A DNA stretch of 64,000 nt from Candidatus Aminicenantes bacterium (GTDB lineage Bacteria; Acidobacteriota; Aminicenantia; S016-38), in NCBI GenBank assembly GCA_026991555.1, contig JALXBI010000050.1, forward strand, positions 245-64,244. The letters are read 5' to 3'. Shown in pieces: positions 1 through 59,109 of the stretch. A program made the translations under genes and the position numbers. Position 1 is the stretch's first letter. Each line of letters opens with the position of its first letter. The notes beneath the pieces were generated by a model, which was not told the origin of the DNA, ran no database searches, and saw only the letters and a list, made by a program, of their open reading frames with translations.

Positions 1-27
1 GAAGCCAGAAAAAAGATAAGATACTAC

Positions 28-3329: not shown

Positions 3330-3342
3330 GTGTCCCCAATCA

Positions 3343-3360: not shown

Positions 3361-3400
3361 ACCTTCCAATAAATCGGGTGACTCATGATAAAATAGTCTT

Positions 3401-4268: not shown

Positions 4269-4283
4269 CCCCCTTGCAAAGCC

Positions 4284-6132: not shown

Positions 6133-6142
6133 TTTTTCCTCC

Positions 6143-8360: not shown

Positions 8361-8363
8361 CTC

Positions 8364-9275: not shown

Positions 9276-12200
9276 TTCACCCCTGTAAAGGCATAAAGGA
9301 TAATGATTGAAATGAGAATCACATAGGCGGCGTAGGTGTTAACATCCCCTGTGTAAATTCTCCTTCCCATCTCAGCAAAGGCCCCAATCCATTCGTAAAT
9401 TCCCCTCCATATTTTGCTCACTAAAGGATAAATCAGCCATTTCACCGCCCTGCGGAAGTGGTCGTAAAGACCATAACCGAAGTGAAGGTCCTGCGGGGTG
9501 CGGGGAACCTCCCCTGAATAGCCCACATCCAGCTGACCTACCTTTCTTATTCTGGCCGAGGTGAGGGCGAAGAATACCAGGGCAAGGAGGAAGGAGCCCA
9601 CAAAGAAAACCATGAGGAAGAAGGCATTCCAGTGGCCGAGTTTAGAAACAATCCCCAGGGCCTTATGATAATGGAAACCTGGGTTTTCCATACCCGGAAT
9701 ACCGGAAAGAACTTTGTTTATCGGATTGAGAAGAAGATTGGGGAAAGCACCCAGAACTCCAAGAGGAATTAAAAGGATTACCTCCACCAAGGCTATTGGC
9801 CAGGGGGCTTCCTTTACATTCTCGTTTTCCTCCTGGAGCTGGCCCAAGAAAACCGCATGGAGAATCTTAAAGCAGTAAAGGAAGGCTAAGGTGGAGGCGA
9901 GAAAAGCCACCACGGTTATAAAAATCCATCCCTTCTCAATGAGGGCCGAATAAAGGAGCCATTTTGCTGCGAATCCCGAAAGGGGAGGAATCCCGGCTAA
10001 GGCTATTATGGCAAGAAGGGTGGCAAAGAAGGTAAGGGGCATTCTCCTTATAAGCCCTCCCATGTGGGGCAGGTAGGAGGTTCCTACCCTGTAAATTATC
10101 CCTGCTGCTGCCACGAATAGAAGTCCCTTGAAAATGAAATGGTTTACCGTATGGTAAAGGGCAGCGTTCCATCCTAAGGGAGTAAAAAGGGAAAGCCCTA
10201 TAAGGATATAGCCCACCTGTCCCACGGAGGAATAGGCAAGGAGTTTTTTAAGATCGTCCTGAAACACTGCAAGGAGGGTCATGAAAAAGGCGGTCAGTGC
10301 TCCAGCCCATCCAAGAAGGTAACGAAAACCTGCCCCGGAAAGAGCAGTAAGCACATAGAGGAAAACCAGGCCAGAGCCGAAAACCCCCATTTTGGACATT
10401 ATCCCGGAAAGCAGGGGCGTAAATTCGTCGGGACTTTCCCCGTAGGCATCCCTGGCCCATATGTGGAGCGGGGAGGTGGCCATTTTAACCAGGAAGGCTA
10501 AGGAAATAAGGACCGCTGGAAGAAGGCCGTAAAATTTACCCGGAGCCAAACTCAGGGAAGGAAGGAGGTAAATTCCCCCGAGCATGGCATAAGCCCCTGC
10601 TGCGGAAAATACCGCATAAATCCAGGCAGCCTTTTTCCCTTTTCCCATGTTTATAAGGAGGAAGGAAGCCCAGCTCATTATCTCCCAGAAAACGAATACC
10701 GAAAGCCAGGTGGTGGAAAGGACAAGCCCGGCCATGGAAAAGAGAACAACCAGGTAGGCAGGATAAAAGGATGAGGAAAGTTTTTTAGAGCCGGGATAGG
10801 TGGCCAAAAGAAGGACCGCACCTCCGAAAAGAACAAGGGCAAGGAAAAACCCGTGAAGGTCGGGTTTTATGTGCGGATAGAGGGAATATATCCCGTAGAC
10901 CAAAACCCCCAAGGAGGCTATCCACTGAAGCAGCCTTGAGGCTCCAAGGAAGTAAACCAGAAGGGAAATTCCAAGAAGGAGCAAAATTTCTGGTTTTACC
11001 GGAATGTGAATTTTATCGGTGAACATTCCCCAGACCACTGGCACAGAAGCAATAAGAATCAGGGAAGATATTAATGGAGAGGCCAGATTTCTTCCCACCT
11101 TCTTTCCTTCCCCCTCGGAGGCTATCCTGTAAAACCGGAAGTAATAAACCACCTCGGCCAGGGCCCCGAGAAGAACCAGCCCCACAACCCAGGAATAATT
11201 TCTGGGAATAGCGAAGATGAGAAGTATCTTGGCCCAGAATCCCGGGAAGGGAGGAACCCCTGCAATGGAGAAAACCGATGTGGAAAAGGAAAACTTGAAT
11301 ACGGGATTGGAGGCAAGAACACCCCTCCAGCCATCAATTTCCCTTTCCTTCACATTGTCCGCAAGGAGAAAGAGGGAGGACTTGGCGAAGGAGTGATTAA
11401 AGACCAGAAGGACCATGGCAAGGCCCATCATGAGCCTTGAGGACGAAGAGAACGAAGGATTCAGGAAAAATCCGGCTGCCAGAATCAGAAGTCCCAGCTG
11501 GGCCACCGAGGAATAACCGAGGAGCCTTCGGACATCCCTCTGCCTCCAGGCGAAAAACTGGCTTACTAAATAGGTCATCCCTCCAAAGAGAAGGGCCAAG
11601 TGGAAAAAGGAAAACAGGGGAAGATAATGGGCCGTTTTTACGAAAACCAGATAAAAGGCCTTTACCGCCGCCCCTGCCAGAAGGGCCACCACCACAGGGT
11701 CTGCCCCCTGATAAACATCTAAGGCCCAGCCGTTTACAGGGAAAACCTCCAGTTCAATAAGAAGCCCGGCAAGAATCATAAGGGTAATCAGGGCCAGAAC
11801 TGCGGAGGAAATTCCCCCGGCCAGCTTGCCGGCTATATCCAGCATGTTCAGGCTTCCGGTGGCCTTGTAAAGAAAAACCACTCCTAAAAGTATGAAGGTG
11901 GAACTTATGGAACCTATAACCATGTATTTAAAGGCAGCCTCAAGGGCCCTCTCATCCTTAGAAGAAGCCACAAGCCCGTAGGCTGCTATGGAAGTAATTT
12001 CCACGAAAACGAACAGGTTGAAAAAGTCTCCGGTGAAGCTTATCCCCGTGGCACCTAAGGAGAGAAGGAGAAACAGGATGAGAGCCTTCCCTTCGGGCTG
12101 GGGAAGCCCCCTTACGAACCAGTGTATAGCACCTAAAAGGGCAATGGTGAAAATTAGAAATCCTAAGGCAGCCTCCGCTTTTCCTACCAGCAGGTTAATT

Positions 12201-12415
12201 CCTATGGGAGGAGGGAAACCGCCAATCTTTACCAGGATGGGTTTTGCGATTTTGCCTGTGATAAAGCCATAGAAATTAAGCCCTGAGACTAAAAAGTCAA
12301 AGGCAAGGGTGAGGAAGAAGAAAACCCTTGCCCATATTCTGTTGTAAACCTGAAGTATGCCTATGAAGAAGGCCGAAGCTAACGTGACTCCGATTATAAT
12401 TATGGGATTTACCAT
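9272..12415 (-). CDS. fused tandem antiporter-like subunits (MrpD/NuoN-like plus MrpA/NuoL-like, equivalent to MbxH-MbxH')
   Basis: 1047 aa. There are two successive proton-pumping-subunit cores: LLGYSSVAQLGLLILA around residue 300 and LLAYSSVGQVGYILIG around residue 730. Each has about 14 TM segments. Confidence 0.75.
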   Translation of the reverse strand: MVNPIIIIGVTLASAFFIGILQVYNRIWARVFFFLTLAFDFLVSGLNFYGFITGKIAKPILVKIGGFPPPIGINLLVGKAEAALGFLIFTIALLGAIHWFVRGLPQPEGKALILFLLLSLGATGISFTGDFFNLFVFVEITSIAAYGLVASSKDERALEAAFKYMVIGSISSTFILLGVVFLYKATGSLNMLDIAGKLAGGISSAVLALITLMILAGLLIELEVFPVNGWALDVYQGADPVVVALLAGAAVKAFYLVFVKTAHYLPLFSFFHLALLFGGMTYLVSQFFAWRQRDVRRLLGYSSVAQLGLLILAAGFFLNPSFSSSSRLMMGLAMVLLVFNHSFAKSSLFLLADNVKEREIDGWRGVLASNPVFKFSFSTSVFSIAGVPPFPGFWAKILLIFAIPRNYSWVVGLVLLGALAEVVYYFRFYRIASEGEGKKVGRNLASPLISSLILIASVPVVWGMFTDKIHIPVKPEILLLLGISLLVYFLGASRLLQWIASLGVLVYGIYSLYPHIKPDLHGFFLALVLFGGAVLLLATYPGSKKLSSSFYPAYLVVLFSMAGLVLSTTWLSVFVFWEIMSWASFLLINMGKGKKAAWIYAVFSAAGAYAMLGGIYLLPSLSLAPGKFYGLLPAVLISLAFLVKMATSPLHIWARDAYGESPDEFTPLLSGIMSKMGVFGSGLVFLYVLTALSGAGFRYLLGWAGALTAFFMTLLAVFQDDLKKLLAYSSVGQVGYILIGLSLFTPLGWNAALYHTVNHFIFKGLLFVAAAGIIYRVGTSYLPHMGGLIRRMPLTFFATLLAIIALAGIPPLSGFAAKWLLYSALIEKGWIFITVVAFLASTLAFLYCFKILHAVFLGQLQEENENVKEAPWPIALVEVILLIPLGVLGAFPNLLLNPINKVLSGIPGMENPGFHYHKALGIVSKLGHWNAFFLMVFFVGSFLLALVFFALTSARIRKVGQLDVGYSGEVPRTPQDLHFGYGLYDHFRRAVKWLIYPLVSKIWRGIYEWIGAFAEMGRRIYTGDVNTYAAYVILISIIILYAFTGVK

Positions 12416-12762
12416 TTCAACTCCTTGTATTCTTCAATTTCAAGGGTTTTCTTTTTGGAATACATGAGCATTACAATGGAAAGGGCCACTGCAGTCACCG
12501 CCACCCCTATGACTATAGCCGTAAGGACCAGAGCCTGGGGAAGGGGATCCACCACCTTGGAGGATGTGTTAACCAGAAGGTCCTTGATGTTGACGATGGG
12601 AGCGGTCCTTCCGCGGATGAAACCTAATGAAATGATGAGCACATTAACTCCCGTGTCCATAAGGGAAAGCCCTATAACTATCTTCATTATGTTCCTTTTA
12701 ACCAAAACCGCATAAAGCCCTATGAGTATCAAGAGTATTGAAGCGACGAAGAAAGCCATCAT
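12409..12762 (-). CDS. MrpC/NuoK-like small membrane subunit
   Basis: 117 aa with three TM segments and the MnhC-like sequence pattern. Confidence 0.65.
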   Translation of the reverse strand: MMAFFVASILLILIGLYAVLVKRNIMKIVIGLSLMDTGVNVLIISLGFIRGRTAPIVNIKDLLVNTSSKVVDPLPQALVLTAIVIGVAVTAVALSIVMLMYSKKKTLEIEEYKELKW

Positions 12763-13451
12763 TCCTCCTTGGTGGTATTTATCATATCGGTTATAAGGCC
12801 CGAAAGTTCGGAGCCCACTTTAAACCCCACCGCCACATATATGAGTGGAATTACACCGGCAGAAAAAAGGCGGTTCCACTGACCCAGGGGAATTATGTTG
12901 TTGGCCAGAAAACTCCCACCCCAGATGAGGCCTGCAAAACCTATAAGAACGAAGGTAATTCCTGCAAGTCCCTCCACCGTGGAAAGGGCCCTGTGGTTGG
13001 GATGGAAGGTAAAGTGGGCAAGGAGCATCAGCATTACTGCAGAGGCAATGACCGTTCCTCCCTGGAACCCTCCCCCTGGGGTCAGGTGCCCGTGAATGAA
13101 TATGTAGGCACCGAAAAGAATAAGGAGAGGATAAAGGGTCTCGGAGGCAGTTTTGACGATGAGACTGGCCTCCCTTCTTTCGTATCTTCTCCTGCAACGG
13201 CATGTGGAAAGGAGGAAAGCCAGGGCAGTAGCCGCTAAGAAAAGCACGGTTACCTCGCCAAGGGTATCAAATCCCCTGTAGTTTACCACTATGGAGGTTA
13301 CCAGGTTGGAGCCACGGTTCTCCTCAATTCCCCTGTCCACATAATGCTTGGATACCCCCCACTTCTCCTTTCCGAAGGGAAAGGAGGAGGTTATTTTGGC
13401 CATAAAGAACCCGAGAAGGATGAGGAAAATTACCGCCAGCCATTTTCTCAT
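12759..13451 (-). CDS. MrpB/MnhB-domain membrane subunit
   Basis: LVTSIVVNYRGFDTLGEVTVLFLAA is the MnhB signature. Confidence 0.65.
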   Translation of the reverse strand: MRKWLAVIFLILLGFFMAKITSSFPFGKEKWGVSKHYVDRGIEENRGSNLVTSIVVNYRGFDTLGEVTVLFLAATALAFLLSTCRCRRRYERREASLIVKTASETLYPLLILFGAYIFIHGHLTPGGGFQGGTVIASAVMLMLLAHFTFHPNHRALSTVEGLAGITFVLIGFAGLIWGGSFLANNIIPLGQWNRLFSAGVIPLIYVAVGFKVGSELSGLITDMINTTKEE

Positions 13452-13693
13452 TTCTCATACCTCTCAGTTTTTCTTATGGCGATTATGAAAATAAGGGTGG
13501 TAAGTCCTGCACCTATGGCAGCTTCGGTCATGGCCACATCAGGAGCCTGAAGGTAAAGGTAAACTATGGAAGCCACCAAGGAAACGAAACCCGCTGCCAC
13601 CACCGCTGCCAGAAGGTCCTTGGTCTCCACAGCATATATGGCCAGACCCAGCATGAGGAAAAGAAGGAAAAGCATGAAATATTCAAGAATCAT
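13448..13693 (-). CDS. MbhD/MbxD-like small membrane subunit (MrpB N-terminal-like); start chosen at the internal Met
   Basis: The ORF track extends to 13798 but overlaps mrpG out of frame. MILEYFMLFLLFLMLGLAIY...AIGAGLTTLIF resembles a hydrogenase subunit-D/DUF4040 protein. Confidence 0.45.
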   Translation of the reverse strand: MILEYFMLFLLFLMLGLAIYAVETKDLLAAVVAAGFVSLVASIVYLYLQAPDVAMTEAAIGAGLTTLIFIIAIRKTERYEK

Positions 13694-14039
13694 TTTCCGC
13701 CTCCTTGAGTCCCCTTTCCTTATCCTCGGCATACCTGTCAAGAACAGAACCCTTGGCAAGGGGAATGCCTTTATTGTGGGAGGCCCTGGCCAGGGCATGG
13801 GAAGAGACAGGATTGGTAAGAAGGATGAAAAGGGAAATTATGGCCGTTTTAAAGAACCACTGGGGGTGGTAAATGCCAACCCCCATTATAAGGGAAAGGG
13901 CTCCTAAGGTTGTGGCCTTTGTTCCTGTCTGCATCCTGTTGTAAACATCAGGCATTCTGAGGAGCCCTATGCCTGCAAGAAACAGGAATAGGGACCCCAC
14001 CAGTATAAGAAACTCACCCAGGGCACGGTAAACCATCAA
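13683..14039 (-). CDS. MrpG/MnhG-like subunit
   Basis: RMPDVYNRMQTGTKATTLGA is the MnhG signature. Confidence 0.65.
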   Translation of the reverse strand: MMVYRALGEFLILVGSLFLFLAGIGLLRMPDVYNRMQTGTKATTLGALSLIMGVGIYHPQWFFKTAIISLFILLTNPVSSHALARASHNKGIPLAKGSVLDRYAEDKERGLKEAENDS

Positions 14040-14293
14040 ACACCTCCTTCTAAATACCGGGCAAGGGCTATAACCCCCAGGAAGGCAAGAACCGCATAAA
14101 CCAGGGCCACATCAAGGTAAATTGCCCTGTGGAAGATCTGGGAGAAAAGAACTATCATGGCCGTGGTTATGGTGGTGGCTGTATCCAGTCCCACTGCCCT
14201 GTCGGAAATGGTAGGCCCCTTCACAATCCTGTAAACCGCCAGCAAAGTGGCCAAACTAACAAGGGCGAAAACTATTATAAGGAGATTACTCAA
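14036..14293 (-). CDS. MrpF/MnhF-like subunit
   Basis: 85 aa, VYRIVKGPTISDRAVGLDT pattern. Confidence 0.65.
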   Translation of the reverse strand: MSNLLIIVFALVSLATLLAVYRIVKGPTISDRAVGLDTATTITTAMIVLFSQIFHRAIYLDVALVYAVLAFLGVIALARYLEGGV

Positions 14294-14771
14294 AGATCAC
14301 CTCCAGAAACCTCTCAAATCCCTTTACTATTTCCTGGGTGGCCGCTTCTATGTCCGGGCTTTTAACATCTATCCAGTGAATGTAAAGATACTGACCAACA
14401 ATATCAACGGAAAGGGTGCCCGGGGTCAGGGTTATGGAGTTGGCCAAAGCGAGTTTTCCTGCATTGGTTTTGAGCTTGGTTTTCACCTTCACTATACCCG
14501 GATTTATGGGAAGCCGGGGATTTACGACCCTGCTTGCCACATCCAGGTTTGCCTTTACCATGGCATAGAGGAAGTAGAAAAGGTAGATGAAGGCAAAAAC
14601 ATACCTTTTTGGCTGAAGCCATTTTTTAGGCTCAGGACCAGCCACCCCCGGGGCTATCATGCTAATGACCGCAGCGGTTATAAGGCCTACGGAAAGCTCC
14701 TGAGGGTCAAAGCTTCCGGTCATGGCCACCCAGAGGACGAAAAGCACAACTGTTGAAACGGCAACCTTCAT
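14286..14771 (-). CDS. MrpE/MnhE-like subunit
   Basis: 161 aa with two N-terminal TM segments and an MnhE-like C-terminal domain. Confidence 0.6.
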   Translation of the reverse strand: MKVAVSTVVLFVLWVAMTGSFDPQELSVGLITAAVISMIAPGVAGPEPKKWLQPKRYVFAFIYLFYFLYAMVKANLDVASRVVNPRLPINPGIVKVKTKLKTNAGKLALANSITLTPGTLSVDIVGQYLYIHWIDVKSPDIEAATQEIVKGFERFLEVIFE

Positions 14772-15397
14772 GCCACACTCCCTTTTTTAATCTTGTAGGC
14801 TAAATACTCTATTTCCGATGCTATTTCCACATAATTTATGACGACCCCTGGCGGGGTTTCTATTCCCTGAAGGGCAAAACTGAGAATTCCCCTTATCCCT
14901 GCCTTGGAGAGTAGGTTTACCGTCTCCTGAAGCCCCTCTGGGGGGATGGCAAGGACAGCAATTTGTGGTGCCTTTTCCCTGTAAAAGTTCTCAATTTCCC
15001 CTATATGTAAAACCTCCACCCCGTTTATCCTCTTTCCGATCTTTTTAGGGTTTCTGTCAAAGGCGGCCAGAACCTTAAAATAAGGTATCTCCCTCAGGTG
15101 GTGGATGAGGGCCCTGCCCAGGTTTCCGGCTCCCACAATTACAACTTTTATGGGTTCGTTTATTCCTATTATCTCCTCTATGGCCTTAGCGAGCTCCCCT
15201 ACCCTGTAGCCCTTCCCCCTGATGCCAAATTCACCAAAATAGGAAAGGTCCTTTCTCACCAAGGAGCCTGAGATACCGCAGCTTCGGGCAAGATCGGAAG
15301 ACTGGATCCATTCCTGGCCCTCAGCCTTAGCCTGGCGGAGACACCTGAGATAGGTGCTTAATCTCCTTATGCTAACTTCAGGTATGGTTATAGCCAT
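14768..15397 (-). CDS. rex: redox-sensing transcriptional repressor Rex (NADH/NAD+ sensor), first gene of the operon
   Basis: N-terminal wHTH IRRLSTYLRCL. Rossmann fold VVIVGAGNLGRAL plus a Rex C-terminal domain. Overlaps mrpE by 4 nt. Confidence 0.85.
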   Translation of the reverse strand: MAITIPEVSIRRLSTYLRCLRQAKAEGQEWIQSSDLARSCGISGSLVRKDLSYFGEFGIRGKGYRVGELAKAIEEIIGINEPIKVVIVGAGNLGRALIHHLREIPYFKVLAAFDRNPKKIGKRINGVEVLHIGEIENFYREKAPQIAVLAIPPEGLQETVNLLSKAGIRGILSFALQGIETPPGVVINYVEIASEIEYLAYKIKKGSVA

Positions 15398-15473
15398 TTT
15401 TCTTGTGAAAGTTCTAACTTAAACAAGGTGACTATGATACCACAAGATGAAAAAAAATCAAGGGTTTTTGTTT

Positions 15474-15501
15474 TTGACAATATCTATTAAAATATTATAA
15501 T
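15474..15501 (+). promoter_or_regulatory. sigma-70-like promoter (TTGACA, 16-nt spacer, TATAAT) for the histidine-kinase operon
   Basis: Exact consensus hexamers at 15474-15479 and 15496-15501, about 20 nt upstream of the HK start. Confidence 0.45.
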
Positions 15502-15518
15502 TTCTGCCCATAAAGGAA

Positions 15519-16499
15519 ATGCCAATGATTGAGCGCGATGGTCATAGCTGCCAGCTCATAATGGAAGTGCTGAATTCCTTACCGATAGGTATAGGAATAT
15601 TTGACAACAACAGGAAACTTCTCCTTTCAAACCAGGAATTCAGAAAGCTTCTCAAAAGCATTGAAAACCTGGAAATATTCTTCAAGGAGCCCCCAGCGGT
15701 TAACGAACTGTTCATATCCTCTATGAGCAAGATAACTGGTTTCTCCTCCTACAGAACACCCCATGGATGGTTCGTAATAACCAAGGACATAACCAGCAAA
15801 CATACAGATGAAAGCGAAGACAGAAAAATCCTTGAACTATTGGACCACCTATTCTCCATGGTGAGGCACGAGGTAGGGAATCCCATAAACACCATCAAAT
15901 TCTCCCTATCTGTCATGAAGGAAGATATAGACAGTTTTTCCAAGGAGAAGCTTCTGGAATACATAGATCGTCTCCTTGAGGAAATAGAACAGCTTGAAGA
16001 AATTCTCCGGGCAATGAAACGCTACAGCAATTACGGCTATGTAGTGATCAAAAAAGTTAATCTGAATGAAACTTTAAGAAAGGTCCTGAGAATTATGGAA
16101 AACGAGATACTGATGAAGGACATAAGCCTGAAAAGCAATCTTCCCTCCCGGGAAATCTTTGTAAAGGCTGACCCTACAGCACTAAATCAGGTGCTTACGA
16201 ACCTGTTGAGAAACTCCATAGAAGCTCTCGAAAACCACCAAGGTTACAAAAAACTCATAGAAGTCTTCGTTAAAACTGACGAGGAGTTTGCCCGCATATA
16301 CATAAAGGACACAGGTCCTGGGATTCCAGAGGAAATAAGGGAGAAGATTTTCTTTCCATTTTTCTCAACCAAAAGGAACGGTTCAGGGATGGGTTTAACC
16401 ATATCCAAGGGACTTATAACAGCCATGGACGGAAAGCTGGACATAAGAAATCATCCCGATGGAGCAATTGCCGAGGTATCTCTCAAATTGTGGAAATGA
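15519..16499 (+). CDS. soluble sensor histidine kinase (N-terminal PAS-like domain); true start probably the ATG at 15525
   Basis: H-box HEVGNPINTIKFS, N-box NLLRNSIEA, G-boxes DTGPGIP and GSGMGL. No TM segments. Confidence 0.8.
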   Translation: MPMIERDGHSCQLIMEVLNSLPIGIGIFDNNRKLLLSNQEFRKLLKSIENLEIFFKEPPAVNELFISSMSKITGFSSYRTPHGWFVITKDITSKHTDESEDRKILELLDHLFSMVRHEVGNPINTIKFSLSVMKEDIDSFSKEKLLEYIDRLLEEIEQLEEILRAMKRYSNYGYVVIKKVNLNETLRKVLRIMENEILMKDISLKSNLPSREIFVKADPTALNQVLTNLLRNSIEALENHQGYKKLIEVFVKTDEEFARIYIKDTGPGIPEEIREKIFFPFFSTKRNGSGMGLTISKGLITAMDGKLDIRNHPDGAIAEVSLKLWK

Positions 16500-17857
16500 A
16501 GGTGAAACACAGGGCAAAAATATTGCTTATAGAGGATGATAGGAACTTCCTCATGCCCCTGAAGGAGTTCTTAGAATCCAGGGGATTTGAAGCTCACATA
16601 TCATCTAAGGCGAGGGACGCCATTGAATTATCCAGACACGAGCTATACGATATGTTCATTATAGACCAGAATTTACCGGATATGGAAGGTATAGAACTGG
16701 CTAAGGAATTGCTTTACTTTCAACCTGGAGCCGCCACACTGATAATGACCGCCTATCCCGACGTAAAGAAGGCAGTGAGAGCTATGAGATTAGGGGTGAT
16801 AAACTACATGATAAAACCCTTTGCCCCTGAAGAGCTTCTCGATGAAATCATCAAGACCCTTGAACTCAGAGAATATAAAAACCTGCGGGAACTCCATAAT
16901 TTTTCCCTAAGAAAGGAAAGGGAAAAAATTTGCATTATAGGCAAATCCAGATGGGCTCAGGAGATTCGGGAATTCATTGAAATGGCAGCTAACTCCCTTG
17001 ATACCCCTGTCCTTTTAACCGGCGAAACTGGCACGGGAAAATCCTTAGTGGCAAGGGCTATCCACTACAATAGCCCTATCAGGGAAAAACCGTTTTTAGT
17101 AGTGAACTGCGCCGCAATTCCAGAATCCCTTCTTGAAGCGGAACTTTTCGGTTTTGAGAAGGGGGCATTCACCGGAGCTGAAAAAAGCCGAAAGGGGGTA
17201 TTTGAGCTGGCCAATGGGGGCACTCTATTCCTGGACGAGATCGGTGACATGCCTATTCCAATGCAAGCTAAAATTCTCCATGTGCTGGATTCAGGAAGGA
17301 TAAGGAGAATAGGAGGGGAGAGGGAGATAAAGGTTAAGGTGAGAATTATTGCTGCCACCAACAAAAACATAGAAGAACTGGTCAAAAAGAAGGAGTTCAG
17401 AAGTGATCTTTACTATCGCCTGGCGGTATTGAGCTTTGAACTCCCTCCCCTCAGAAACCGAAGAGAGGATATAATCCCTCTTGCCGAACACTTCCTGAGA
17501 CAATTGTCCAGGGGAAACCATTATGAACTATCTCCCGAGGACAAAGAGGCGCTGGTCAATTACGATTTTCCAGGCAATGTAAGGGAACTGAGAAATATAA
17601 TAGAAAGAGCCTTAATTCTGTCACGCAGAAAAGGGGTTCTCAGTATAAAGGAACTAATCAATAGATCACCTTTCCGGGAAAACATCAGGAAAGATGAATC
17701 CGGGACTTCTGAGAGATTTCCTCCGCTTGAGGAAGTCATAAAAGAACACGTTCATAGGGCCCTTAAGATCACCCGGGGCAACAAGACCGAGGCGGCAAAA
17801 TTACTGGGTATTTCCATCTCCACATTAAAAAGATGGTTAAAAAAATGGTCAAATTGA
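16490..17857 (+). CDS. sigma-54-dependent response regulator (NtrC family: REC, AAA+, Fis-type HTH)
   Basis: REC domain with D at ILLIEDD...DQNLPDMEG. Walker A GETGTGKS. GAFTGA motif (FEKGAFTGA). C-terminal HTH. Confidence 0.85.
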   Translation: MEMKVKHRAKILLIEDDRNFLMPLKEFLESRGFEAHISSKARDAIELSRHELYDMFIIDQNLPDMEGIELAKELLYFQPGAATLIMTAYPDVKKAVRAMRLGVINYMIKPFAPEELLDEIIKTLELREYKNLRELHNFSLRKEREKICIIGKSRWAQEIREFIEMAANSLDTPVLLTGETGTGKSLVARAIHYNSPIREKPFLVVNCAAIPESLLEAELFGFEKGAFTGAEKSRKGVFELANGGTLFLDEIGDMPIPMQAKILHVLDSGRIRRIGGEREIKVKVRIIAATNKNIEELVKKKEFRSDLYYRLAVLSFELPPLRNRREDIIPLAEHFLRQLSRGNHYELSPEDKEALVNYDFPGNVRELRNIIERALILSRRKGVLSIKELINRSPFRENIRKDESGTSERFPPLEEVIKEHVHRALKITRGNKTEAAKLLGISISTLKRWLKKWSN

Positions 17858-17932
17858 TCCGAAGAAGTCATATTTGAGCGGCTCAATTTGACCTATGGTT
17901 ACTTATCGCCGCTTCTCATAAGACTCCAGGTT

Positions 17933-17948
17933 TGGCATGTTTCTTGCT
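17933..17948 (+). promoter_or_regulatory. sigma-54 (-24/-12) promoter TGGCATGTTTCTTGCT upstream of the REC-DUF4388 regulator gene
   Basis: GG and GC elements are separated by exactly 10 nt, matching TGGCAC-N5-TTGCW. It lies very close to the ATG at 17961. Confidence 0.45.
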
Positions 17949-17960
17949 TAATAAGAAACG

Positions 17961-19022
17961 ATGAAAAGGATATTAATAGTGGATGATGATAAAAACTTTC
18001 TTGTTAGCCTGAAGGATGCCCTGGAGAAATACGAAGGCTTTGAAGTCCTGACAGCAACCACCGGATCGGAAGCAGAAAAAATCCTCCGGGAGGAGCCAGC
18101 GGTGGATTTGATCATATCCGATCTGAAAATGGGGGAAATAGATGGCCTCCAGCTACTAACTTACGTTTCAAGGGAATTTCCCTCCCTGCCTTTTATTCTC
18201 ATGACAGCCTATGGATCCCCTGCCATAAAAAAGAAAGTTCAGGAATTGGGGGCAGGATATCTTGAGAAACCCCTCACCTTAAAAACTCTTACAAACGCTA
18301 TAAACACCGTTCTGAAGAAGGAAGAATCCCCAGAAGGGATAATCAAAAATTTCTCGGCTATTTCCCTAGCCCAGCTCATCCGTCTTGAGGGAAAATCCTG
18401 CGATGTGTTGATAATTTCGGAAAGAGGAGAAGAAGGTATTCTGGGCTTTTTATCCGGTGAGTTAACGTATGCAAGGGCTGGAACCCTGGAAGGGGATGAG
18501 GCGGCCAAGGAAATTTTTAAATGGAAAGGAACAAAATTATTCATTAAGGAGTTTCAGCCCCATCCCAAAAACATCCATAGGTCCCTTGAAAGCCTCATTC
18601 TTGAGGCCGCCAGGGAAAAGGACGAAGGGAAAAATTCAGGATTAAATCACAAAGAAAAAAACAAAAAGGAGGTAACTATGCCTTTACCCTATGAGGAAAT
18701 CGTGGAAAGTTTCAAGGAAATTCCCGGCTACGTTGGGTCAGCGATTTTCAATGTCAACGGAGAACAGCTGGTATTTCATGCGCTAAAGGATGCAGATAGG
18801 CTGAAAAAATACTTCCTTCAGATGACCAGCCTGTTCGTAGCAGGCCAAAAGGCAGCGGAGAAAACAGGAGCAGGAGGTCTGGATTTTATCCAGACTGACT
18901 CGGATCTTGGGAAATTCCTGGCAAGACGAGGGGAAAAATTCATCGCCATGCTTATGCTGGAAGAAGACGGCAACATAGCTCTGGCCAAGGAGGCTCTGGA
19001 AGAAGCAGCCAAGAAAATTTAA
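17961..19022 (+). CDS. response regulator: REC plus DUF4388 plus a C-terminal Roadblock/LC7-like domain
   Basis: REC domain (ILIVDDDKNF...DLKMGEIDG). Middle DUF4388-like segment (FSAISLAQLIRLEGKSCDVLI...GEEAAKEIFKWKGTKLFIKEF). C-terminal ~100-aa domain with an MglB/Roadblock-like pattern. Confidence 0.65.
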   Translation: MKRILIVDDDKNFLVSLKDALEKYEGFEVLTATTGSEAEKILREEPAVDLIISDLKMGEIDGLQLLTYVSREFPSLPFILMTAYGSPAIKKKVQELGAGYLEKPLTLKTLTNAINTVLKKEESPEGIIKNFSAISLAQLIRLEGKSCDVLIISERGEEGILGFLSGELTYARAGTLEGDEAAKEIFKWKGTKLFIKEFQPHPKNIHRSLESLILEAAREKDEGKNSGLNHKEKNKKEVTMPLPYEEIVESFKEIPGYVGSAIFNVNGEQLVFHALKDADRLKKYFLQMTSLFVAGQKAAEKTGAGGLDFIQTDSDLGKFLARRGEKFIAMLMLEEDGNIALAKEALEEAAKKI

Positions 19023-19134
19023 CGGGACATAACGGAATTTCCTTAAAAGGGGAGAACAGTATTATAGTTCTCCCCCTTGACATCTCATTTATAATTCTTC
19101 TTAATTACAATTTAATTTAAATAAGGGGTGTAAT

Positions 19135-19707
19135 ATGTCGCTTAGAATTAAGTTTGCGGATTTGTTGACCTTTCTTTCCTTCAAGTCCTCACCAAACAAA
19201 CTTATAAGGGTGCTTTTCTCTTACGGCTCACAAAATGGGGAAATGGCCTTTAAGAACGGAGAAATGTGGGAATTAAGATTCCCCGACATGGAAACGGACT
19301 CTGCCATAAACTTTCTCCATGACAGAAAAATAGTAATAAAAGAAATAAAGGAGCTGCTCCCGGGCAATACAATAGAAACCCTGTCACACCTCATTTCCGG
19401 ATTTTCAAAGGAATTTCTTATATACCACGCCCGGGAAGGAGAATTAACGTGGGAAATATCATCTGAAGAATTGAAGGATTTCTATTTAAAATCTAAAAAG
19501 AAAATCCTCGAAAATCTCAAGCACAGAACGGACATTGTATGGCTTGAGAACGACGAAAATCCGGGGATCTATGCTCTTAAGCTAAAGAAGGAGCTCGTGG
19601 TATTCACCTTCTTCAATACGTCCCCCTCTGCCAGGGAAGAATTCTTCAATTCAACTCCGCCTTTCCTCAGAGAACTGTCAAAGATTACATCAGAATGCGT
19701 TCCCTAA
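19135..19707 (+). CDS. stand-alone DUF4388-domain protein
   Basis: IKFADLLTFLSFKSSPNKLIRVLFSYGSQNGEMAFKNGEMWELRF matches the DUF4388 pattern. Paralogue of 60115..60714. Confidence 0.5.
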   Translation: MSLRIKFADLLTFLSFKSSPNKLIRVLFSYGSQNGEMAFKNGEMWELRFPDMETDSAINFLHDRKIVIKEIKELLPGNTIETLSHLISGFSKEFLIYHAREGELTWEISSEELKDFYLKSKKKILENLKHRTDIVWLENDENPGIYALKLKKELVVFTFFNTSPSAREEFFNSTPPFLRELSKITSECVP

Positions 19708-19767
19708 TTAAAAAGCGGGCCAGTATCACTTGTTTCTTTTTCCGTTTTCAGGAAGGAGGCTCACTTC

Positions 19768-20112
19768 TCAACAGGTCAGGTGAAAGGCTCCGCAAACCTT
19801 TTTCCCTTCTTCCACCAGCTGGTTGAAAATCTCCGCTGCCCTTGATGTCTTCTCCGCTACAAGGTGAATACCCAGCTCCTTCAGTTTTTCCTCCACCTCC
19901 CTTTGCACCTTCATAAAACCATAGGCACCGGTTCCCACCACCAGAACCTCGGGCCTATAGGAAATTATGTCCTGGATGTCATCCAGGTAAAGTTTGTGCC
20001 CCTCCTTTCTCCACCAGTTCTTAACTATGCGCTCGGGAAAAATCTTGAGGTCCGCGGTAAACTCCTCTCCATCAACGACCATAAGCCCAAATTTGTATTT
20101 CTCTATTTTCAT
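19768..20112 (-). CDS. Mth938-like domain protein
   Basis: RPEVLVVGTGAYGFMKV...LGIHLVAEKTSRAAEIFNQLVEEGKKVCGAFHLTC pattern. Confidence 0.5.
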   Translation of the reverse strand: MKIEKYKFGLMVVDGEEFTADLKIFPERIVKNWWRKEGHKLYLDDIQDIISYRPEVLVVGTGAYGFMKVQREVEEKLKELGIHLVAEKTSRAAEIFNQLVEEGKKVCGAFHLTC

Positions 20113-22157
20113 TCTGCTTTTTTCAAAAGCTCCTTCACCGAAGGCTGGTCGGGATTGATTTTAAGGGAAGCCTCAAGGACCTTCCTTGCCTCCCCCTTCT
20201 TACCCAGTTTCAGGTAACAAGCACCTAAGGAATTCAAAACCCTGACATCGCTGTCGTAAATCAAAAGAGATCGCCTATAATAGGATATGGCAGTTTGGCA
20301 ATCCCCCTGAAGCTCGTAGGCCTTTCCCTTGTAAAATAGAATTTCCGGTTCCCCCTTTTCCTCAAATCCTGAAAGAATCCTCAGGGCATCCTTAGGCCTT
20401 TTTTCCACCAGGTATGCTTTTGCAAGGTAAACCGCTGCCTCCTTGAAATCCGGTTTTCCTTCCAGGGCCTTTTCAAGATAAGGGATGGATTTTCTGTATT
20501 CACCCGCATTCTGATACTGAAGGGCCAGGGCGTAGTAAACTATATATTTCCTCTCAAGGGGAAGGTTTTTCGTCACCACCGAGGGTCTGGGGAGAGCGGA
20601 AATCGGACTGACCATGAAGTCCGCAGGGGGGGATTTCTTTTCCCCGATTCTCGCAAAAAGCACATATTCATCCGAAGGAAGTTTCTCCGCTATGGCTCCG
20701 GAATAAACAAAATCCCTTTTGTAGGGAAGGGTGGAAAGCTTTACTGAGGCCAGAACCTTTTCCTCCTCCTCGGTTTGCAGCACCAACTCCAGTTTTTCCT
20801 TCTGCCAAATCTCCTTTGGAAGAGACCAAATTTCCACGGCATATACAATTTTGTCCTTAGGAGTAAAGGCCTTTTTGGCATCCATGTAGTAATAGACATT
20901 GGCTAAGGTAAAGGGTTTCAGGGCGTAAAGGGAAAATTGAGAGGTTTTATATGCCAGAATTGGCTTTCCTATATTGAATTCCCCGGAGGAAGGCACTGCT
21001 ATTCTTTTGTCCCAGTAGGAAAATTCCTTGGATACGGTGTTTTTTACAAGGAGCACCACATCATATGTCCCTTCTATAATGGGGACCTCACCCTGAAGCG
21101 CAAGTCCCCCGCTCTTTACTGCGGAAAGCTCTGAACTTTTGACCTCCACGGTGTAGGTATTCTTAAATTTGGCAAGGACCTTTTCCTCGGATTGTTTTAA
21201 TATAACATCAACCTCAAAGGCAGCCAGGTATTTTCCACCTCCCTCCTTCTGGAAGGTAACCGAGGAGGGCTGGATGGAATAGTGGAGAAAATTTACCCCC
21301 AGGTTCAGGTCCTTTAAGATGTAGGTAATGAAGTCAGCCTTTATGTAATTGAGGCTGTAGTCCACATCAACCATCCCTTTGTATTTAAGAAAATCCTCTG
21401 CGTAGGAAGTATCAAATTCCTTTTCTGGAAGGGAAAGAACATTGGCTATTATAGATGCAGCCTGGGGAGAAGGCTGATAATTGTAAGGTATAGTGCCCGG
21501 TATAAGAGAAAGGGCCACATCGGCAATGGCCGGCGCGTGCTCTCTTAAATATTCGTAGAGCTGCTCGTAATCGGTGGGATTAAGGTCCATGGTATTGGTA
21601 GTTTTAAGAAGCAGGGCATAGGGACCGTCGGAAAGGGGATCGTAAAGCTTGAATTCCCCCATCCCATTCCTCTTGAAGAAAATTATGGCAAAATGGGGAG
21701 GGAGTCCGGGTTTTCCCTGCCCGTAATAATACCAGACCTCTATGGGAACCAATACCTGGCTCATGTAATATCTTTCAATGCTGACGGGCTTTCCCAGAAG
21801 GATGTAAATCCTGCCCCTGTCCGTCTTCCATCCTGGCTTTGGGGAATCTATTCCTAAATATTTATTGGCATAATTAAACCTTTTTATCAGCTCCTGCTTG
21901 AATTCGTTCTGAGGGGTGGCTGGATTGGGGTCCCTGACCCTCCAGAAGGCCTTTATAAAAATGTCCCTTTCCCGGTTGTTCTTCAGTTTAAGGAAAACCT
22001 CCTTCTCCTTGGGGGTTATGACCCACCAGACCAGCTCCAGCCATTTCTGATACTTCAGAGGAAGCTCCTTGATTATCTTCTCTTCCTTAGAAGGAAAGAG
22101 AAAAAAGGCCACAAGGAAAAGAAGAAGTAGTTTCTTTGCCAATCCTGTTTTTCTCAT
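20109..22157 (-). CDS. secreted GWxTD-domain protein with C-terminal TPR repeats
   Basis: Signal peptide. GWKTDRGRIYILLGKP motif. C-terminal TPR-like repeats (YYALALQYQNAGEY..., AVYLAKAY..., LNSLGACYLKLGK). Confidence 0.55.
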   Translation of the reverse strand: MRKTGLAKKLLLLFLVAFFLFPSKEEKIIKELPLKYQKWLELVWWVITPKEKEVFLKLKNNRERDIFIKAFWRVRDPNPATPQNEFKQELIKRFNYANKYLGIDSPKPGWKTDRGRIYILLGKPVSIERYYMSQVLVPIEVWYYYGQGKPGLPPHFAIIFFKRNGMGEFKLYDPLSDGPYALLLKTTNTMDLNPTDYEQLYEYLREHAPAIADVALSLIPGTIPYNYQPSPQAASIIANVLSLPEKEFDTSYAEDFLKYKGMVDVDYSLNYIKADFITYILKDLNLGVNFLHYSIQPSSVTFQKEGGGKYLAAFEVDVILKQSEEKVLAKFKNTYTVEVKSSELSAVKSGGLALQGEVPIIEGTYDVVLLVKNTVSKEFSYWDKRIAVPSSGEFNIGKPILAYKTSQFSLYALKPFTLANVYYYMDAKKAFTPKDKIVYAVEIWSLPKEIWQKEKLELVLQTEEEEKVLASVKLSTLPYKRDFVYSGAIAEKLPSDEYVLFARIGEKKSPPADFMVSPISALPRPSVVTKNLPLERKYIVYYALALQYQNAGEYRKSIPYLEKALEGKPDFKEAAVYLAKAYLVEKRPKDALRILSGFEEKGEPEILFYKGKAYELQGDCQTAISYYRRSLLIYDSDVRVLNSLGACYLKLGKKGEARKVLEASLKINPDQPSVKELLKKAE

Positions 22158-22750: not shown

Positions 22751-23448
22751 AGAAAGTAAAGGAGGCCAGGGAACTTTTAAAAAACAGGGAAGCTGTTCCC
22801 TTAGAGGGAAAACATCTGGTGGCCGATGGCCTCCGTTGGGGATTGAAGCCCCTTTATCTCTTCCTTTCCAAGGAGGATCCGCAAGTCATCGCCCTTGCCG
22901 AGAAAAGGGGAATCTCTCCCATTTTCATCGGCGAAAGGGCCATGCGTTCCCTTTCTTCCCTGAAGACCCCACCGGGGGAACTCCTTTTAGTTGCTCCTCC
23001 CCAGTGGAAGGAGGAAGATTTTTCAAAAATCGTGGTCCTGGAGGAAGTTCAGGACCCCACCAATGTAGGAAGCATACTGAGAACGGCCTATTGTTTGGGA
23101 TATGATGCTGTATATATCGATGCTCATTCCGCCCACCCCTTCTCCCCAAAAACCGTAAGGGCCAGTGCCGGATATTCCCTGAGAATGCCGGTCTTCCGGG
23201 TAGCTCTTCCCGAAAAACTACGGGAATGGAAGGGCAGAAAAAGGATTCTCGGCACCTTTCCTAAGGGAGGAGAGGCCCCGAAGCCATTAAAGGAAGATTT
23301 CGTTCTGATCTTTGGAAACGAATCCAGGGGAATAAGCCCTCAGCTGAGTCAGCTTGTGGAGCGCAAGCTCACCATACCCATGGAAAGGGGGGAGTCCTTG
23401 GGGGTGGCGGCCTCTGCTGCCATACTCCTCTATCTTCTCAGGGGCTGA
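22747..23448 (+). CDS. TrmH/SpoU-family RNA 2'-O-methyltransferase
   Basis: VVLEEVQDPTNVGSILRTAYCLG, FGNESRGI and GVAASAAILLY are the SPOUT motifs. Confidence 0.75.
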   Translation: MKKVKEARELLKNREAVPLEGKHLVADGLRWGLKPLYLFLSKEDPQVIALAEKRGISPIFIGERAMRSLSSLKTPPGELLLVAPPQWKEEDFSKIVVLEEVQDPTNVGSILRTAYCLGYDAVYIDAHSAHPFSPKTVRASAGYSLRMPVFRVALPEKLREWKGRKRILGTFPKGGEAPKPLKEDFVLIFGNESRGISPQLSQLVERKLTIPMERGESLGVAASAAILLYLLRG

Positions 23449-24418
23449 AGAAGGTGGCCAGGTTAACCCCTTTTTCGAAAAACCAGCCCAAGGGAGGATA
23501 GTGGGCCCTGGAGGGAGGAAGGGAGAGGGAGGCTGAGGTTCTCTGGAGGAGGAGCCTTTCCTCAGAAGGGGAAATCACAGCCTGAATATACTCCTTCCTT
23601 TCCCCGAGGAAATTTAAAACCTCCTCGGGACCCGGGACCTCCTTTAGAAGCACCGTTCTCGCCGGGATTAGAGGGGGAAATTCCTTTACCAGAAAAAGGG
23701 CTTCATGGGAAAGAAGGCAAAAATCCTCAGCATAATAGGTGAGATATTTTGTGTAATACTCAAAGGAAAACCTGTTGAAACTTCCCTGGGGGGGTCTTTC
23801 CCAGGCGGCTTCCTTAAAAATCTCACAAGCCCTTTTAAGTTCCCATTTTTCAGCGAACAAAACCACCGGCGAAAGACAACCCTCCCCATCAAAGCTCAGG
23901 GCGTCCAGGAAAAAGGGATAGGGGTCATCCTTCACTATACCTATGGAAAAGCGAGGGCCAAAGAACCTGAAGGGAACCCCGAGCTTGGAAAGGGCCTGCC
24001 CCAGACCCTTCGCTCCGAAACCCACCACAAAGTCAAATTCCCGGGCATAACTATTTAAATGGCTGTGGGGAAAAAACACGAATTTCAAACCGGAAAACTC
24101 CCCAAGGAGCCGGTAAAAAAGTTCTTCAGCCAGGGGTCTTTTAAAAACTGCCTCCAGACCGTAGGCATCAAGGAGTGGCCCCATCTGGAAAGGTATGAGG
24201 GGGACATTGGCCGGCAGAAGCACCAGGACCCTGCGGGGGCCTGAAAGGTGAGGGGGCTCAAATTCCAGAAGCTGGCGGGAAAGGTAAAGGAGAATGTCCT
24301 TTAAAACATTCTCCTGATAACCCTTAGAGGATACAGGCCTTCCCTTTTCAATTTCCCGGACAATCTTAAGGGCAGCCTCGGCCAGCCTTTCTGTCCACTT
24401 ATCTGAAGACATATCCAC
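23438..24418 (-). CDS. LuxC-like acyl-CoA reductase candidate (assignment mostly by context)
   Basis: 326 aa, overlaps the upstream LuxE-like gene by 20 nt. No strong motif recognised by eye. Confidence 0.35.
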   Translation of the reverse strand: MDMSSDKWTERLAEAALKIVREIEKGRPVSSKGYQENVLKDILLYLSRQLLEFEPPHLSGPRRVLVLLPANVPLIPFQMGPLLDAYGLEAVFKRPLAEELFYRLLGEFSGLKFVFFPHSHLNSYAREFDFVVGFGAKGLGQALSKLGVPFRFFGPRFSIGIVKDDPYPFFLDALSFDGEGCLSPVVLFAEKWELKRACEIFKEAAWERPPQGSFNRFSFEYYTKYLTYYAEDFCLLSHEALFLVKEFPPLIPARTVLLKEVPGPEEVLNFLGERKEYIQAVISPSEERLLLQRTSASLSLPPSRAHYPPLGWFFEKGVNLATFFSP

Positions 24419-25316: not shown

Positions 25317-25810
25317 AGATAACCCATGTTTTTCAGGGCCTGAGTATAAGTTTTTCCTTCCCTATTCCCCGTGGAAGGAGCACACCCCACATATTTTTTC
25401 CCTTCAAGATAAAGGGAGCAGAAGGGAAGACCGTTTTCCTTTATGGCCTTCCATATCTCAAAATCGCTCAGCCCTTTGAGGGGAAAGATTTCCTTTACAG
25501 GGCCGGAAAGAGGTTTGGGTTTTCTTAGGGGTTCGTAGACTTCGGAAAAGCCCTGCGAGGAAAGATAGGGAAGGAGGAATTCCTCCCTCAGGTAATTGCA
25601 CCATTCATCCCTTCCCCCTTCAAAATCCCCTGCCTCCACATCCAGCCTGATGGCTTTGAACCCGAAGTGCCTCTCCGCTTCCATTAAATAATCGTAAACC
25701 TGAGGGAGATAAAATCCTGGGTCAATGAATAGCACGGCATCAACCTCTCTGGCATAGAGATGCAAAAGAAGGGTGGTTTCCTTATCTCCCACAAACCAAA
25801 GCGCCTTCAT
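25313..25810 (-). CDS. PAPS-reductase-family (adenine-nucleotide alpha-hydrolase fold) protein with a degenerate PP-loop
   Basis: FVGDKETTLLLHL sits where SGGKDS is expected. The C-terminal LPFCSLYLEGKKYVGCAPST resembles the conserved LY..Gy.siGC..CT region. Confidence 0.5.
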   Translation of the reverse strand: MKALWFVGDKETTLLLHLYAREVDAVLFIDPGFYLPQVYDYLMEAERHFGFKAIRLDVEAGDFEGGRDEWCNYLREEFLLPYLSSQGFSEVYEPLRKPKPLSGPVKEIFPLKGLSDFEIWKAIKENGLPFCSLYLEGKKYVGCAPSTGNREGKTYTQALKNMGYL

Positions 25811-59097: not shown

Positions 59098-59109
59098 ATT
59101 AAACCTCCC

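Follow-up and report, generated by a model that had tools for sequence, protein, structure and literature searches.

A candidate feed-forward circuit of one kinase and two response regulators, the second a REC-PATAN-Roadblock protein, in Candidatus Aminicenantes

Introduction

Why would one histidine kinase be encoded together with two response regulators, the second of which has no DNA-binding domain? The question is raised by positions 15519-19707 of a 64-kb stretch (64,000 nucleotides (nt); here called the window) from a metagenome-assembled genome (MAG) of Candidatus Aminicenantes. Four open reading frames (ORFs) on the + strand fill this interval: a kinase (ORF1), an NtrC-type sigma-54 activator (ORF2), a regulator that joins receiver (REC), PATAN and Roadblock-like domains (ORF3) and a REC-less relative of it (ORF4). 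We propose that they represent a conserved cassette in which one kinase and two response regulators work as a feed-forward circuit, a reading to which, taken as a whole, we give an even chance. The elements of the cassette are as follows (coordinates, strand, feature; AF2, AlphaFold2).

15474-15501, +: sigma-70-type promoter TTGACA-16-TATAAT, 5' of the kinase gene, 12 of 12 consensus positions matched, predicted function
15519-16499, +: kinase gene (ORF1, 326 residues), PAS-like N-terminus at about 1-100, HisKA at 110-170, HATPase_c at 218-323
16496-17857, +: NtrC-type activator gene (ORF2), REC, AAA+ with GAFTGA, HTH_8; alternative GTG start at 16490
17847-17859, no strand: upstream dyad 1, GGTCAAATTGATC, candidate activator binding site, 87 nt before the promoter
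17881-17893, no strand: upstream dyad 2, GCTCAATTTGACC, 53 nt before the promoter
17933-17948, +: predicted sigma-54 (-24/-12) promoter, TGGCATGTTTCTTGCT, conserved in 17/17 cassettes
17961-19022, +: REC-PATAN-Roadblock regulator gene (ORF3, 353 residues), from Pfam, AF2 and profile comparison
19049-19075, +: G+C-rich hairpin 3' of ORF3, 9-bp stem in the fold, 12-nt inverted repeat
19135-19707, +: REC-less protein gene (ORF4, 190 residues), PATAN-like N-half at 5-87, C-half at 88-190

Results and discussion

The promoter and paired dyads are conserved with the gene order

We compared 17 related cassettes, annotated with custom hidden Markov models (HMMs), from MAGs of Aminicenantes, Acidobacteriota, Syntrophales, 'Deltaproteobacteria' and 'Clostridia'. 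The order kinase-activator-REC-PATAN, the promoter and the dyad pair are conserved together in these 17 cassettes, which lie in unrelated genomic surroundings. This agrees with the two-step layout suggested by a first-pass annotation of the window, in which a histidine kinase and an NtrC-type protein lead to a sigma-54 promoter and a REC-DUF4388 gene. A -24/-12 element precedes the REC-PATAN gene in all 17, as an exact TGGCA-N6-TTGC in 13 and with one mismatch in the other 4. In the window this element, TGGCATGTTTCTTGCT, departs at one position from the consensus TGGCAC-N5-TTGCW. Sigma-54-like matches with up to two mismatches are found 16 times in the window against 20 expected, which is the level of chance, and the case for the promoter thus rests on comparison and not on window statistics. 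With a single mismatch, conservation in 17/17 cassettes and paired dyads upstream, the element has the sequence features of a sigma-54-dependent promoter, and its earlier placement before the second regulator appears sound.

The dyad pattern GNTCAWWWTGANC has exactly two matches in 64 kb, against 0.11 expected, and both lie upstream of the promoter. Together, dyads 1 and 2 form a 15-nt inverted repeat (RNA fold -20 kcal/mol, z=-4.7). Like dyads stand at equal positions and distances in the related loci L004, L007, L009a and L011, and most of the wider cassettes L020-L027 (from MAGs of Syntrophales, Acidobacteriota, 'Deltaproteobacteria' and 'Clostridia') have tandem GTTCA-N3-TGAAC-type dyads where the activator gene has its 3' end. 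Dyad 1 reaches into the 3' end of the activator gene, across its final codons and stop codon (AAA TGG TCA AAT TGA); the stretch 17847-17859 would therefore be constrained both as protein and as operator. This double-duty stretch is conserved in orthologues.

These observations suggest that the activator acts on the promoter at 17933-17948 through the two candidate dyads. We regard this link as the best-supported step of the model, because the promoter is conserved and the dyads are both unique in 64 kb and conserved in position. It could still be argued that there is no cascade at all, the genes being merely adjacent, with ORF3 transcribed by read-through and phosphorylated by another kinase. 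The chance-level frequency of promoter matches in the window would fit such an account, but 17 cassettes from different phyla have kept the promoter, the dyads and the gene order, and this, with the uniqueness of the dyad pattern, makes it very improbable.

The kinase and the activator

ORF1 is a sensor histidine kinase of the HisKA type. It matched HisKA (PF00512) with 36.8 bits (cut-off 26.9, E=4e-9) and HATPase_c (PF02518) with 73.2 bits (cut-off 26.4, E=2.8e-20), and its translation contains the H-box HEVGNP together with NLLRNS, DTGPGI and GSGMGL. We found no transmembrane segment in ORF1 (maximum Kyte-Doolittle value 1.38 over 19 residues), and residues 18-46 resemble PAS_7 at a level under the threshold (E=1e-3). 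The kinase can thus still be described as soluble and PAS-like, as first annotated, with that limit on the PAS likeness. Its nearest NCBIfam entries are AtoS, NifL and ZraS, yet it falls far under all equivalog cut-offs. Orthologues with 33-57% identity occupy the same position in the related cassettes.

ORF2 belongs to the NtrC family of enhancer-binding proteins, as had been proposed. Pfam recognized Response_reg (PF00072), Sigma54_activat (PF00158; 229.8 bits, E=2e-68), AAA_lid_14 (PF25601) and HTH_8 (PF02954), and the GAFTGA loop is intact in the translation. Since no NCBIfam equivalog cut-off was reached, the protein is not AtoC, NtrC or ZraR themselves. The ATG at 16496 is likely its start codon; it is the start given by a gene caller at the same locus, and it overlaps the TGA stop of the kinase gene by 4 nt as ATGA, an overlap also present in most relatives. 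The 10-nt overlap initially reported arises only with the GTG at 16490, so that the overlap itself stands and its length does not. Translation of the kinase and the activator may be coupled through the ATGA, and we count this in favour of the feed-forward reading.

ORF3 joins a receiver to PATAN and a divergent Roadblock domain

The REC domain of ORF3 (residues 4-115; Response_reg E=3.7e-23, Pfam) carries D9, D10, D54, T82 and K103, all invariant in the REC domains of the ORF3 family. It is followed by a DUF4388 domain (PF14332, residues 125-223), which at 38.8 bits against a cut-off of 25 (E=1.1e-9) covers profile positions 1-121 of 122. DUF4388 and PATAN are names of one and the same domain (bioRxiv 10.1101/2021.06.11.447907; PMC12448109). 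After PATAN the chain continues as a helix to residue 228, a disordered linker (226-241) and a C-terminal domain (243-352). In the AF2 model (mean predicted local distance difference test, pLDDT, 85.5) the PATAN unit has the order beta-alpha-beta-beta-beta-alpha-beta with a long helix. The C-terminal domain (pLDDT about 90) is modelled as alpha-beta-beta-alpha-beta-beta-beta-alpha, the Roadblock order, with these elements (H, helix; E, strand):

H 243-251
E 257-264
E 269-274
H 278-302
E 309-314
E 317-323
E 327-333
H 339-352

Against Pfam Robl_LC7 (PF03259) the C-terminal domain scored 14.3 bits where the cut-off is 23 (E=0.036). In its family, 7 of 13 members matched Robl_LC7 weakly, the best with E=1.1e-5. 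A profile of the family found as its best PDB matches the 'Robl_LC7 domain-containing' chains 7f8m and 7f8f at full length (hmmsearch, E=5.5e-4 and 7.3e-4), and hhalign of the family against these two chains gave 94% probability over 98 columns (E=1.1e-7). The PATAN regions of ORF3 and ORF4, used as controls against the same Roadblock profile, gave E values of about 0.4. No MglB chain appeared in the PDB search with the family profile even at E up to 10, and the Roadblock profile did not match the REC-Robl_LC7 protein P0063. Foldseek with the full ORF3 model returned only receiver domains from the PDB.

We therefore accept the C-terminal domain as a divergent member of the Roadblock superfamily, from profile comparison and modelled fold, and not as a member of PF03259 by Pfam score. 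The REC-DUF4388-Roadblock architecture of the first-pass annotation thus survives above the Pfam cut-off for DUF4388, whereas its Roadblock part fails by Pfam score and is supported by profile comparison and the order of elements in the AF2 model. That ORF3 lacks a DNA-binding domain was correctly seen; PATAN and the divergent Roadblock domain are its outputs. The latter is the most conserved part of the ORF3 family, and domains of its type also occur as a stand-alone protein of 114 residues (P0123-P0125; L007 4493-4837).

The ORF3 transcript is predicted to be leaderless

The ATG of ORF3 (17961) lies 12 nt past TTGCT and is preceded by no Shine-Dalgarno sequence. With the C of the -12 GC at 17947, promoter geometry places the transcription start at about 17959. 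No start codon is possible downstream of 17961, because REC begins at residue 4. Since the ORF3 start would follow the predicted transcription start by about 2 nt, with no Shine-Dalgarno sequence, the ORF3 mRNA is probably leaderless or near-leaderless. Shine-Dalgarno sequences are present at other genes of the window, namely the kinase gene (15519-16499), ORF4, the regulator of a second module described below (AAGGGAGG) and the pilin gene pilA, whose sigma-54 promoter TGGCATGGTTTTTGCT is followed by a leader of about 26 nt with AAGGAGG.

The same arrangement is found in the comparison set. Measured from the T of TGG, the REC-PATAN start codon lies at +26 to +31 in 10 of the 17 cassettes, including all of those from Aminicenantes and the paralogous H-NOX type (see below). 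In 4 others the distance is +37 to +42 and a GGAAG-like Shine-Dalgarno sequence is present, and in the last 3 it is about +90. This implies that the 10 cassettes would make sigma-54-dependent leaderless mRNAs. Our literature searches found no description of leaderless mRNA from sigma-54 promoters; a paper on leaderless mRNA (PMC12754779) concerns a sigma-A promoter. In the window (17948-17961) and in L004, L007, L009, L011, L013, L016, L023 and L026 the start codon stands 10-15 nt beyond the -12 element and lacks a Shine-Dalgarno sequence.

One kinase may serve two receivers

A second, paralogous module lies in the same window (custom HMMs, Pfam and pairwise identity).

57868-60714, -: second paralogous module (module 2)
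60115-60714, -: ORF4-like gene of module 2
59110-60111, -: soluble kinase gene of module 2
57868-59097, -: regulator gene of module 2, REC-DUF4388 (E=2e-9)-acidic linker-Roadblock-like

Module 2 has no sigma-54 activator. Its promoter is sigma-70-like, its regulator gene is preceded by a strong Shine-Dalgarno sequence, and its pairwise identities with module 1 are 41%, 35% and 29%. The layout in L012 is the same, a kinase adjoining a REC-PATAN-Roadblock regulator and no activator. These activator-less pairs are our chief ground for proposing that the kinase family phosphorylates the regulator family directly, and the kinase of module 1 would therefore serve two receivers.

One kinase with two REC proteins is also the classic layout of a phosphate sink, as in CheY-type sinks. 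ORF3 would then be induced by the activator only to compete with it for the phosphoryl groups of the kinase, giving negative feedback or adaptation, while PATAN and Roadblock would merely localise or oligomerise the protein. Such a role would suit a regulator with intact phospho-acceptor residues that would be induced by the very activator whose kinase it probably shares. It is, however, difficult to reconcile with the Roadblock domain being the most conserved part of the family, which argues for a specific output, or with the regulators of module 2 and L012, which are kept where there is no activator to damp. We consider a sink rather improbable.

From the gene and domain content, the conservation of the promoter, of the dyads and of the order of the genes, and the kinase-regulator pair of the paralogous module, we infer the following feed-forward circuit, in which all binding and phosphotransfer steps, the transcription start and the target are predictions. 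The cytoplasmic, PAS-like kinase and the NtrC-type activator, whose genes overlap as ATGA, would be co-produced from the sigma-70 promoter. On an intracellular signal the kinase would phosphorylate the activator, as judged from domains, gene order and the literature. The activator would then bind the two dyads (GNTCA-N3-TGANC), which lie across its own stop codon and in the intergenic region, and open the sigma-54 promoter 53-87 nt downstream; the conserved elements point to this binding, and to a transcript that would start about 2 nt before the ORF3 ATG, so that the regulator would be made from a leaderless or near-leaderless mRNA. Domains, gene order and literature further suggest that ORF3 is most likely phosphorylated by the same kinase, which would close a coherent feed-forward loop. 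The signal would be needed both to make and to activate ORF3, because the same kinase would drive its induction and its phosphorylation.

Several points weigh against this reading. The transcription start at 17959 is predicted from promoter geometry only. The Roadblock domain is under the Pfam threshold. A comparison of the alpha-1 helices of the two REC domains revealed a common DDxNF...L pattern in Aminicenantes cassettes that is absent from the wider set; a shared kinase specificity of the activator and ORF3 receivers was thus not clearly seen. For the output proposed below, pilus genes do not adjoin the cassette in the relatives examined (L007, L009, L011 and L012), and their proximity in the window may therefore be chance. 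Finally, PATAN of ORF3 lacks the helical insertion described for cyanobacterial PATAN and follows REC instead of preceding it (REC-PATAN, not PATAN-REC), which makes the transfer of PilB binding to ORF3 an extrapolation.

Possible outputs of ORF3: pili, a GTPase or another target

The window also encodes a type IVa pilus cluster, 6-19 kb from the cassette, with these genes.

30786-32537, -: pilB, MshEN and T2SSE domains, passes TIGR02538; candidate target
29633-30775, -: pilT, passes TIGR01420; candidate target
28424-29623, -: pilC (Pfam); candidate target
25807-28424, -: PilS/PilR-like pair of kinase and sigma-54 activator
37931-38438, +: pilin gene pilA with its own sigma-54 promoter

PATAN/DUF4388 occurs in more than 8000 proteins, and in Synechocystis PATAN alone binds the N-terminal half of PilB1 and suffices to reverse phototaxis; full-length regulators of the PatA type also make contact with PilC at its N-terminal domain (bioRxiv 10.1101/2021.06.11.447907). 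DUF4388 is, moreover, found fused to the PilB-type GspE_N domain (bioRxiv 10.1101/2021.06.11.447907; also PMC10519157). By analogy with these cyanobacterial PatA-type regulators, the output of ORF3 would be protein docking, with PATAN contacting the N-terminal part of PilB and PilC. The Roadblock domain would offer a dimerisation or platform surface for ORF3 itself, for the Roadblock-like half of ORF4, or for another Roadblock protein or a GTPase. The circuit would probably end in post-translational control, either of the type IVa pilus machinery or of cell polarity. On the same strand as the PilR-like gene and downstream of it, 23438-25810 (-) encodes two proteins without a Pfam match (326 and 305 residues) and a short PAPS_reduct-like protein, a gene set conserved in L001 and L004.

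The first-pass annotation had favoured an MglB-like, GTPase-regulating switch. The Roadblock domain of ORF3, alone or with ORF4, would be a platform acting as GTPase-activating protein or guanine nucleotide exchange factor (GAP/GEF) for an MglA-like GTPase encoded elsewhere; REC phosphorylation would gate it and so set polarity. ORF3 does contain a Roadblock-superfamily domain, and GTPase genes were found 8 kb from the module in L012, together with a Robl_LC7 gene, and 4-5 kb away in L018 and L019. MglB homologues have been reported near PATAN genes (Makarova 2006, as cited in PMC4316618). However, the MglA-like genes near REC-PATAN modules are confined to these three relatives and are separated from the modules by unrelated genes, and neither the cassette, nor any of its 17 relatives, nor the window ORFs that were scanned yielded an MglA-like small Ras-like GTPase. 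The domain itself departs widely from canonical Robl_LC7 (14.3 bits, cut-off 23), and the PDB search that returned no MglB chain points the same way. ORF3 is not an MglB, since the cassettes and the scanned window ORFs hold no GTPase partner; the switch as such we think unlikely. The links to pili and to a GTPase both stay hypothetical, because neither gene set adjoins the cassette in the relatives examined.

As to the GTPase loci themselves, L012 1-2042 holds an Arf/Gtr1-like GTPase gene paired with the Robl_LC7 gene, and a REC-less sigma-54 activator, and MglA-type proteins of 345 residues with a C-terminal extension are encoded at L018 4221-5258 and L019 5251-6294.

A variant of the cassette points to yet another output. 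In L009b, L013b and L016b the kinase and the activator genes are divergent from a sigma-54-driven operon that encodes a REC-PATAN-Roadblock protein, an H-NOX protein (PF07700) and 2-3 small Roadblock-like proteins homologous to the ORF3 domain (91%, E=1e-6). The circuit could accordingly be redox- or gas-responsive and serve development or biofilm formation without pili, the regulator docking on cell division, c-di-GMP or secretion proteins much as PatA acts in heterocyst patterning. The gas sensor encoded beside the regulator in the variant and the rarity with which the cassette adjoins pilus genes would speak for this; yet no H-NOX gene is present in this module or in the window, and PilB and PilC are the only experimentally defined partners of PATAN. 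On balance such a circuit seems to us quite unlikely here. The H-NOX variants are located at L009 11811-16447, L013 11794-16436, L016 8624-13496 and L007 1318-2996; in L016 the H-NOX gene is present as a tandem pair.

ORF4 is a REC-less relative of ORF3

ORF4, which has a Shine-Dalgarno sequence of its own, was first taken for a stand-alone DUF4388 protein. It matched nothing in Pfam or NCBIfam, in Pfam not even at E up to 1, and so it does not reach the DUF4388 gathering threshold. Profile-profile comparison of its N-half with the PATAN region of the ORF3 family, with P0012 excluded, nonetheless gave 86-94% and E=1.5e-7 to 4.6e-6, and 2 of 11 members of the ORF4 family matched DUF4388 directly (best 5.2e-5). 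An earlier comparison between the ORF4 and ORF3 profiles (99.6%) was discarded, as it had been inflated by P0012, a protein that combines an ORF4-like N-half with a true Roadblock domain. The C-half aligned co-linearly, from end to end, with the ORF3 Roadblock domain (43%, E=2.4e-4, against about 0.4 for controls); with solved Roadblock proteins it gave 15% (E=1.8e-3). An AF2 model built from two sequences was of low confidence (pLDDT 54), better in the N-half, where it has the PATAN order; the C-half was modelled as alpha-beta-beta-alpha-beta-beta-alpha, and Foldseek with this low-confidence model gave no match at E<=0.001.

At the level of profile comparison we regard it as firm that ORF4 is a REC-less relative of ORF3 with a PATAN-like N-half, and only tentatively do we take its C-half for a decayed Roadblock domain. 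What remains of the original assignment is the PATAN-like N-half; the protein is a two-domain, REC-less and paralogue-like one without a Pfam match. The family is extremely small: a full HMMER scan covering 1.84 billion representatives yielded 8 proteins at E<=0.001. In the genomes examined, the regulator comes together with proteins of the ORF4 type. They are encoded directly upstream of the kinase in L007, L009 (L009a), L012 and module 2 of the window and directly upstream of the regulator in L016; in the L011 genome the PATAN and Roadblock protein P0012, at another locus, was the only such protein seen.

The hairpin between ORF3 and ORF4 (-16 kcal/mol, z=-3.3) has no clear U-tract and is not in the terminator-scan list; it could possibly be a terminator or an RNA-stabilising element. 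Rfam identified no RNA family in 14500-20500.

Relation to known systems

Each part of the cassette is of a known kind. The cyanobacterial PatA-type (PATAN-REC) regulators PixG, PixE, PilG, TaxP2, LsiR and PatA, like ORF3, combine PATAN with a CheY-like receiver and have no DNA-binding domain. Their output is protein contact, with the N-terminal part of PilB and PilC's N-terminal domain, and we propose by analogy the same kind of output for ORF3. Because REC (4-115) here precedes PATAN (125-223), ORF3 is not a PatA-type response regulator. The reversed order is accompanied by an extra Roadblock domain, by predicted sigma-54-dependent expression and by a short PATAN that lacks the helical insertion (99 residues, where the profile has 122 positions; Pfam and AF2 model), and its partner in the cassette is a classical HisKA kinase, in contrast to the CheA proteins or photoreceptors of PatA-type regulators.

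MglB, MglC and other Roadblock/LC7 proteins of the MglA polarity module (Myxococcus, Thermus) share the Roadblock fold with ORF3. That module includes a REC-containing partner, RomR, and the literature ties it to PATAN genes and pilus polarity; the likeness to ORF3 lies in the association with a receiver. The cassette differs in having no MglA-like GTPase and in a Roadblock domain that is fused to REC and PATAN and lies under the Pfam Robl_LC7 threshold. The Streptomyces conservons (CvnA kinase, CvnB Roadblock protein, CvnC DUF742 protein, CvnD GTPase) likewise encode a kinase with Roadblock-family proteins. The cassette is not a conservon, as it has neither DUF742 nor a GTPase, but a soluble kinase, PATAN, REC and a sigma-54 step.

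With the NtrB/NtrC, AtoS/AtoC and PilS/PilR systems the cassette shares a kinase, a REC-AAA+-HTH activator, upstream dyads and a -24/-12 promoter; the pilSR-pilA genes of the window are a textbook example of such a sigma-54 two-component system. Here, unlike there, the regulated gene itself encodes a response regulator that probably answers to the same kinase, the promoter is so near the ATG that a leaderless mRNA is predicted, and one dyad is placed inside the coding end of the activator gene. Our literature searches found neither a REC-PATAN-Roadblock fusion nor a cassette of kinase, activator, sigma-54 and REC-PATAN with its operator, nor the ORF4 family, nor a leaderless sigma-54 layout.

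More speculatively, and more apt to be wrong than right in our view, the cassette may be an undescribed, phylum-spanning device. Its kinase would both induce ORF3, through sigma-54 and a leaderless mRNA, and phosphorylate it; the PATAN-Roadblock fusion would couple the PilB/PilC motor to a Roadblock-based polarity platform, and ORF4-type proteins would be constitutive partners or antagonists. If so, the fusion would be a Rosetta-stone link between two systems so far joined by gene neighbourhood only. The function of PATAN is known only from a few cyanobacterial regulators, and its long-noted neighbourhood with MglB-like Roadblock proteins is without a mechanistic explanation. A natural REC-PATAN-Roadblock fusion that comes with a kinase, an activator, a predicted operator and REC-less paralogues offers a testable handle on the cooperation of PATAN and Roadblock. 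As circuit design, too, the layout is a clear candidate: a two-component feed-forward loop whose activator would induce another substrate of the kinase that it depends on itself. The hosts are uncultured; the activator-less paralogue in the same genome provides a built-in comparison.

Surroundings of the cassette and other features of the window

Family searches placed a Rex gene at 14768-15397, divergent from the kinase gene, as noted at the outset for the rex operon. The rex-mbx neighbourhood is retained in the closest relatives only; its proximity to the cassette is therefore incidental and without functional weight, and we rejected a functional tie of Rex or Mbx to the module. The rex-mrp/mbx-like operon occupies 4357-15397 on the minus strand. 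Just 5' of the rex start codon, 15402-15425 (TTGTGAA...TTAAACAA) resembles a degenerate Rex operator, as for autoregulation.

On the other side, 19768-22157 (-) encodes a DUF498 protein and a 682-residue GWxTD-domain plus TPR protein, convergent with ORF4. Only the closest relatives share this arrangement, and in L004 an EamA transporter gene lies between ORF4 and DUF498.

Elsewhere in the window, the stretch 1-4300 has a G+C content of 0.37-0.40, against about 0.47 in the remainder, and contains an AbiEii-type toxin gene (3654-4268) and several ORFs without a family match; this could be an islet of mobile or defence genes. At 43855-44875 (+) the gene of an ECF-type sigma factor (Sigma70_r2/r4) precedes that of a zf-HC2 anti-sigma-like protein.

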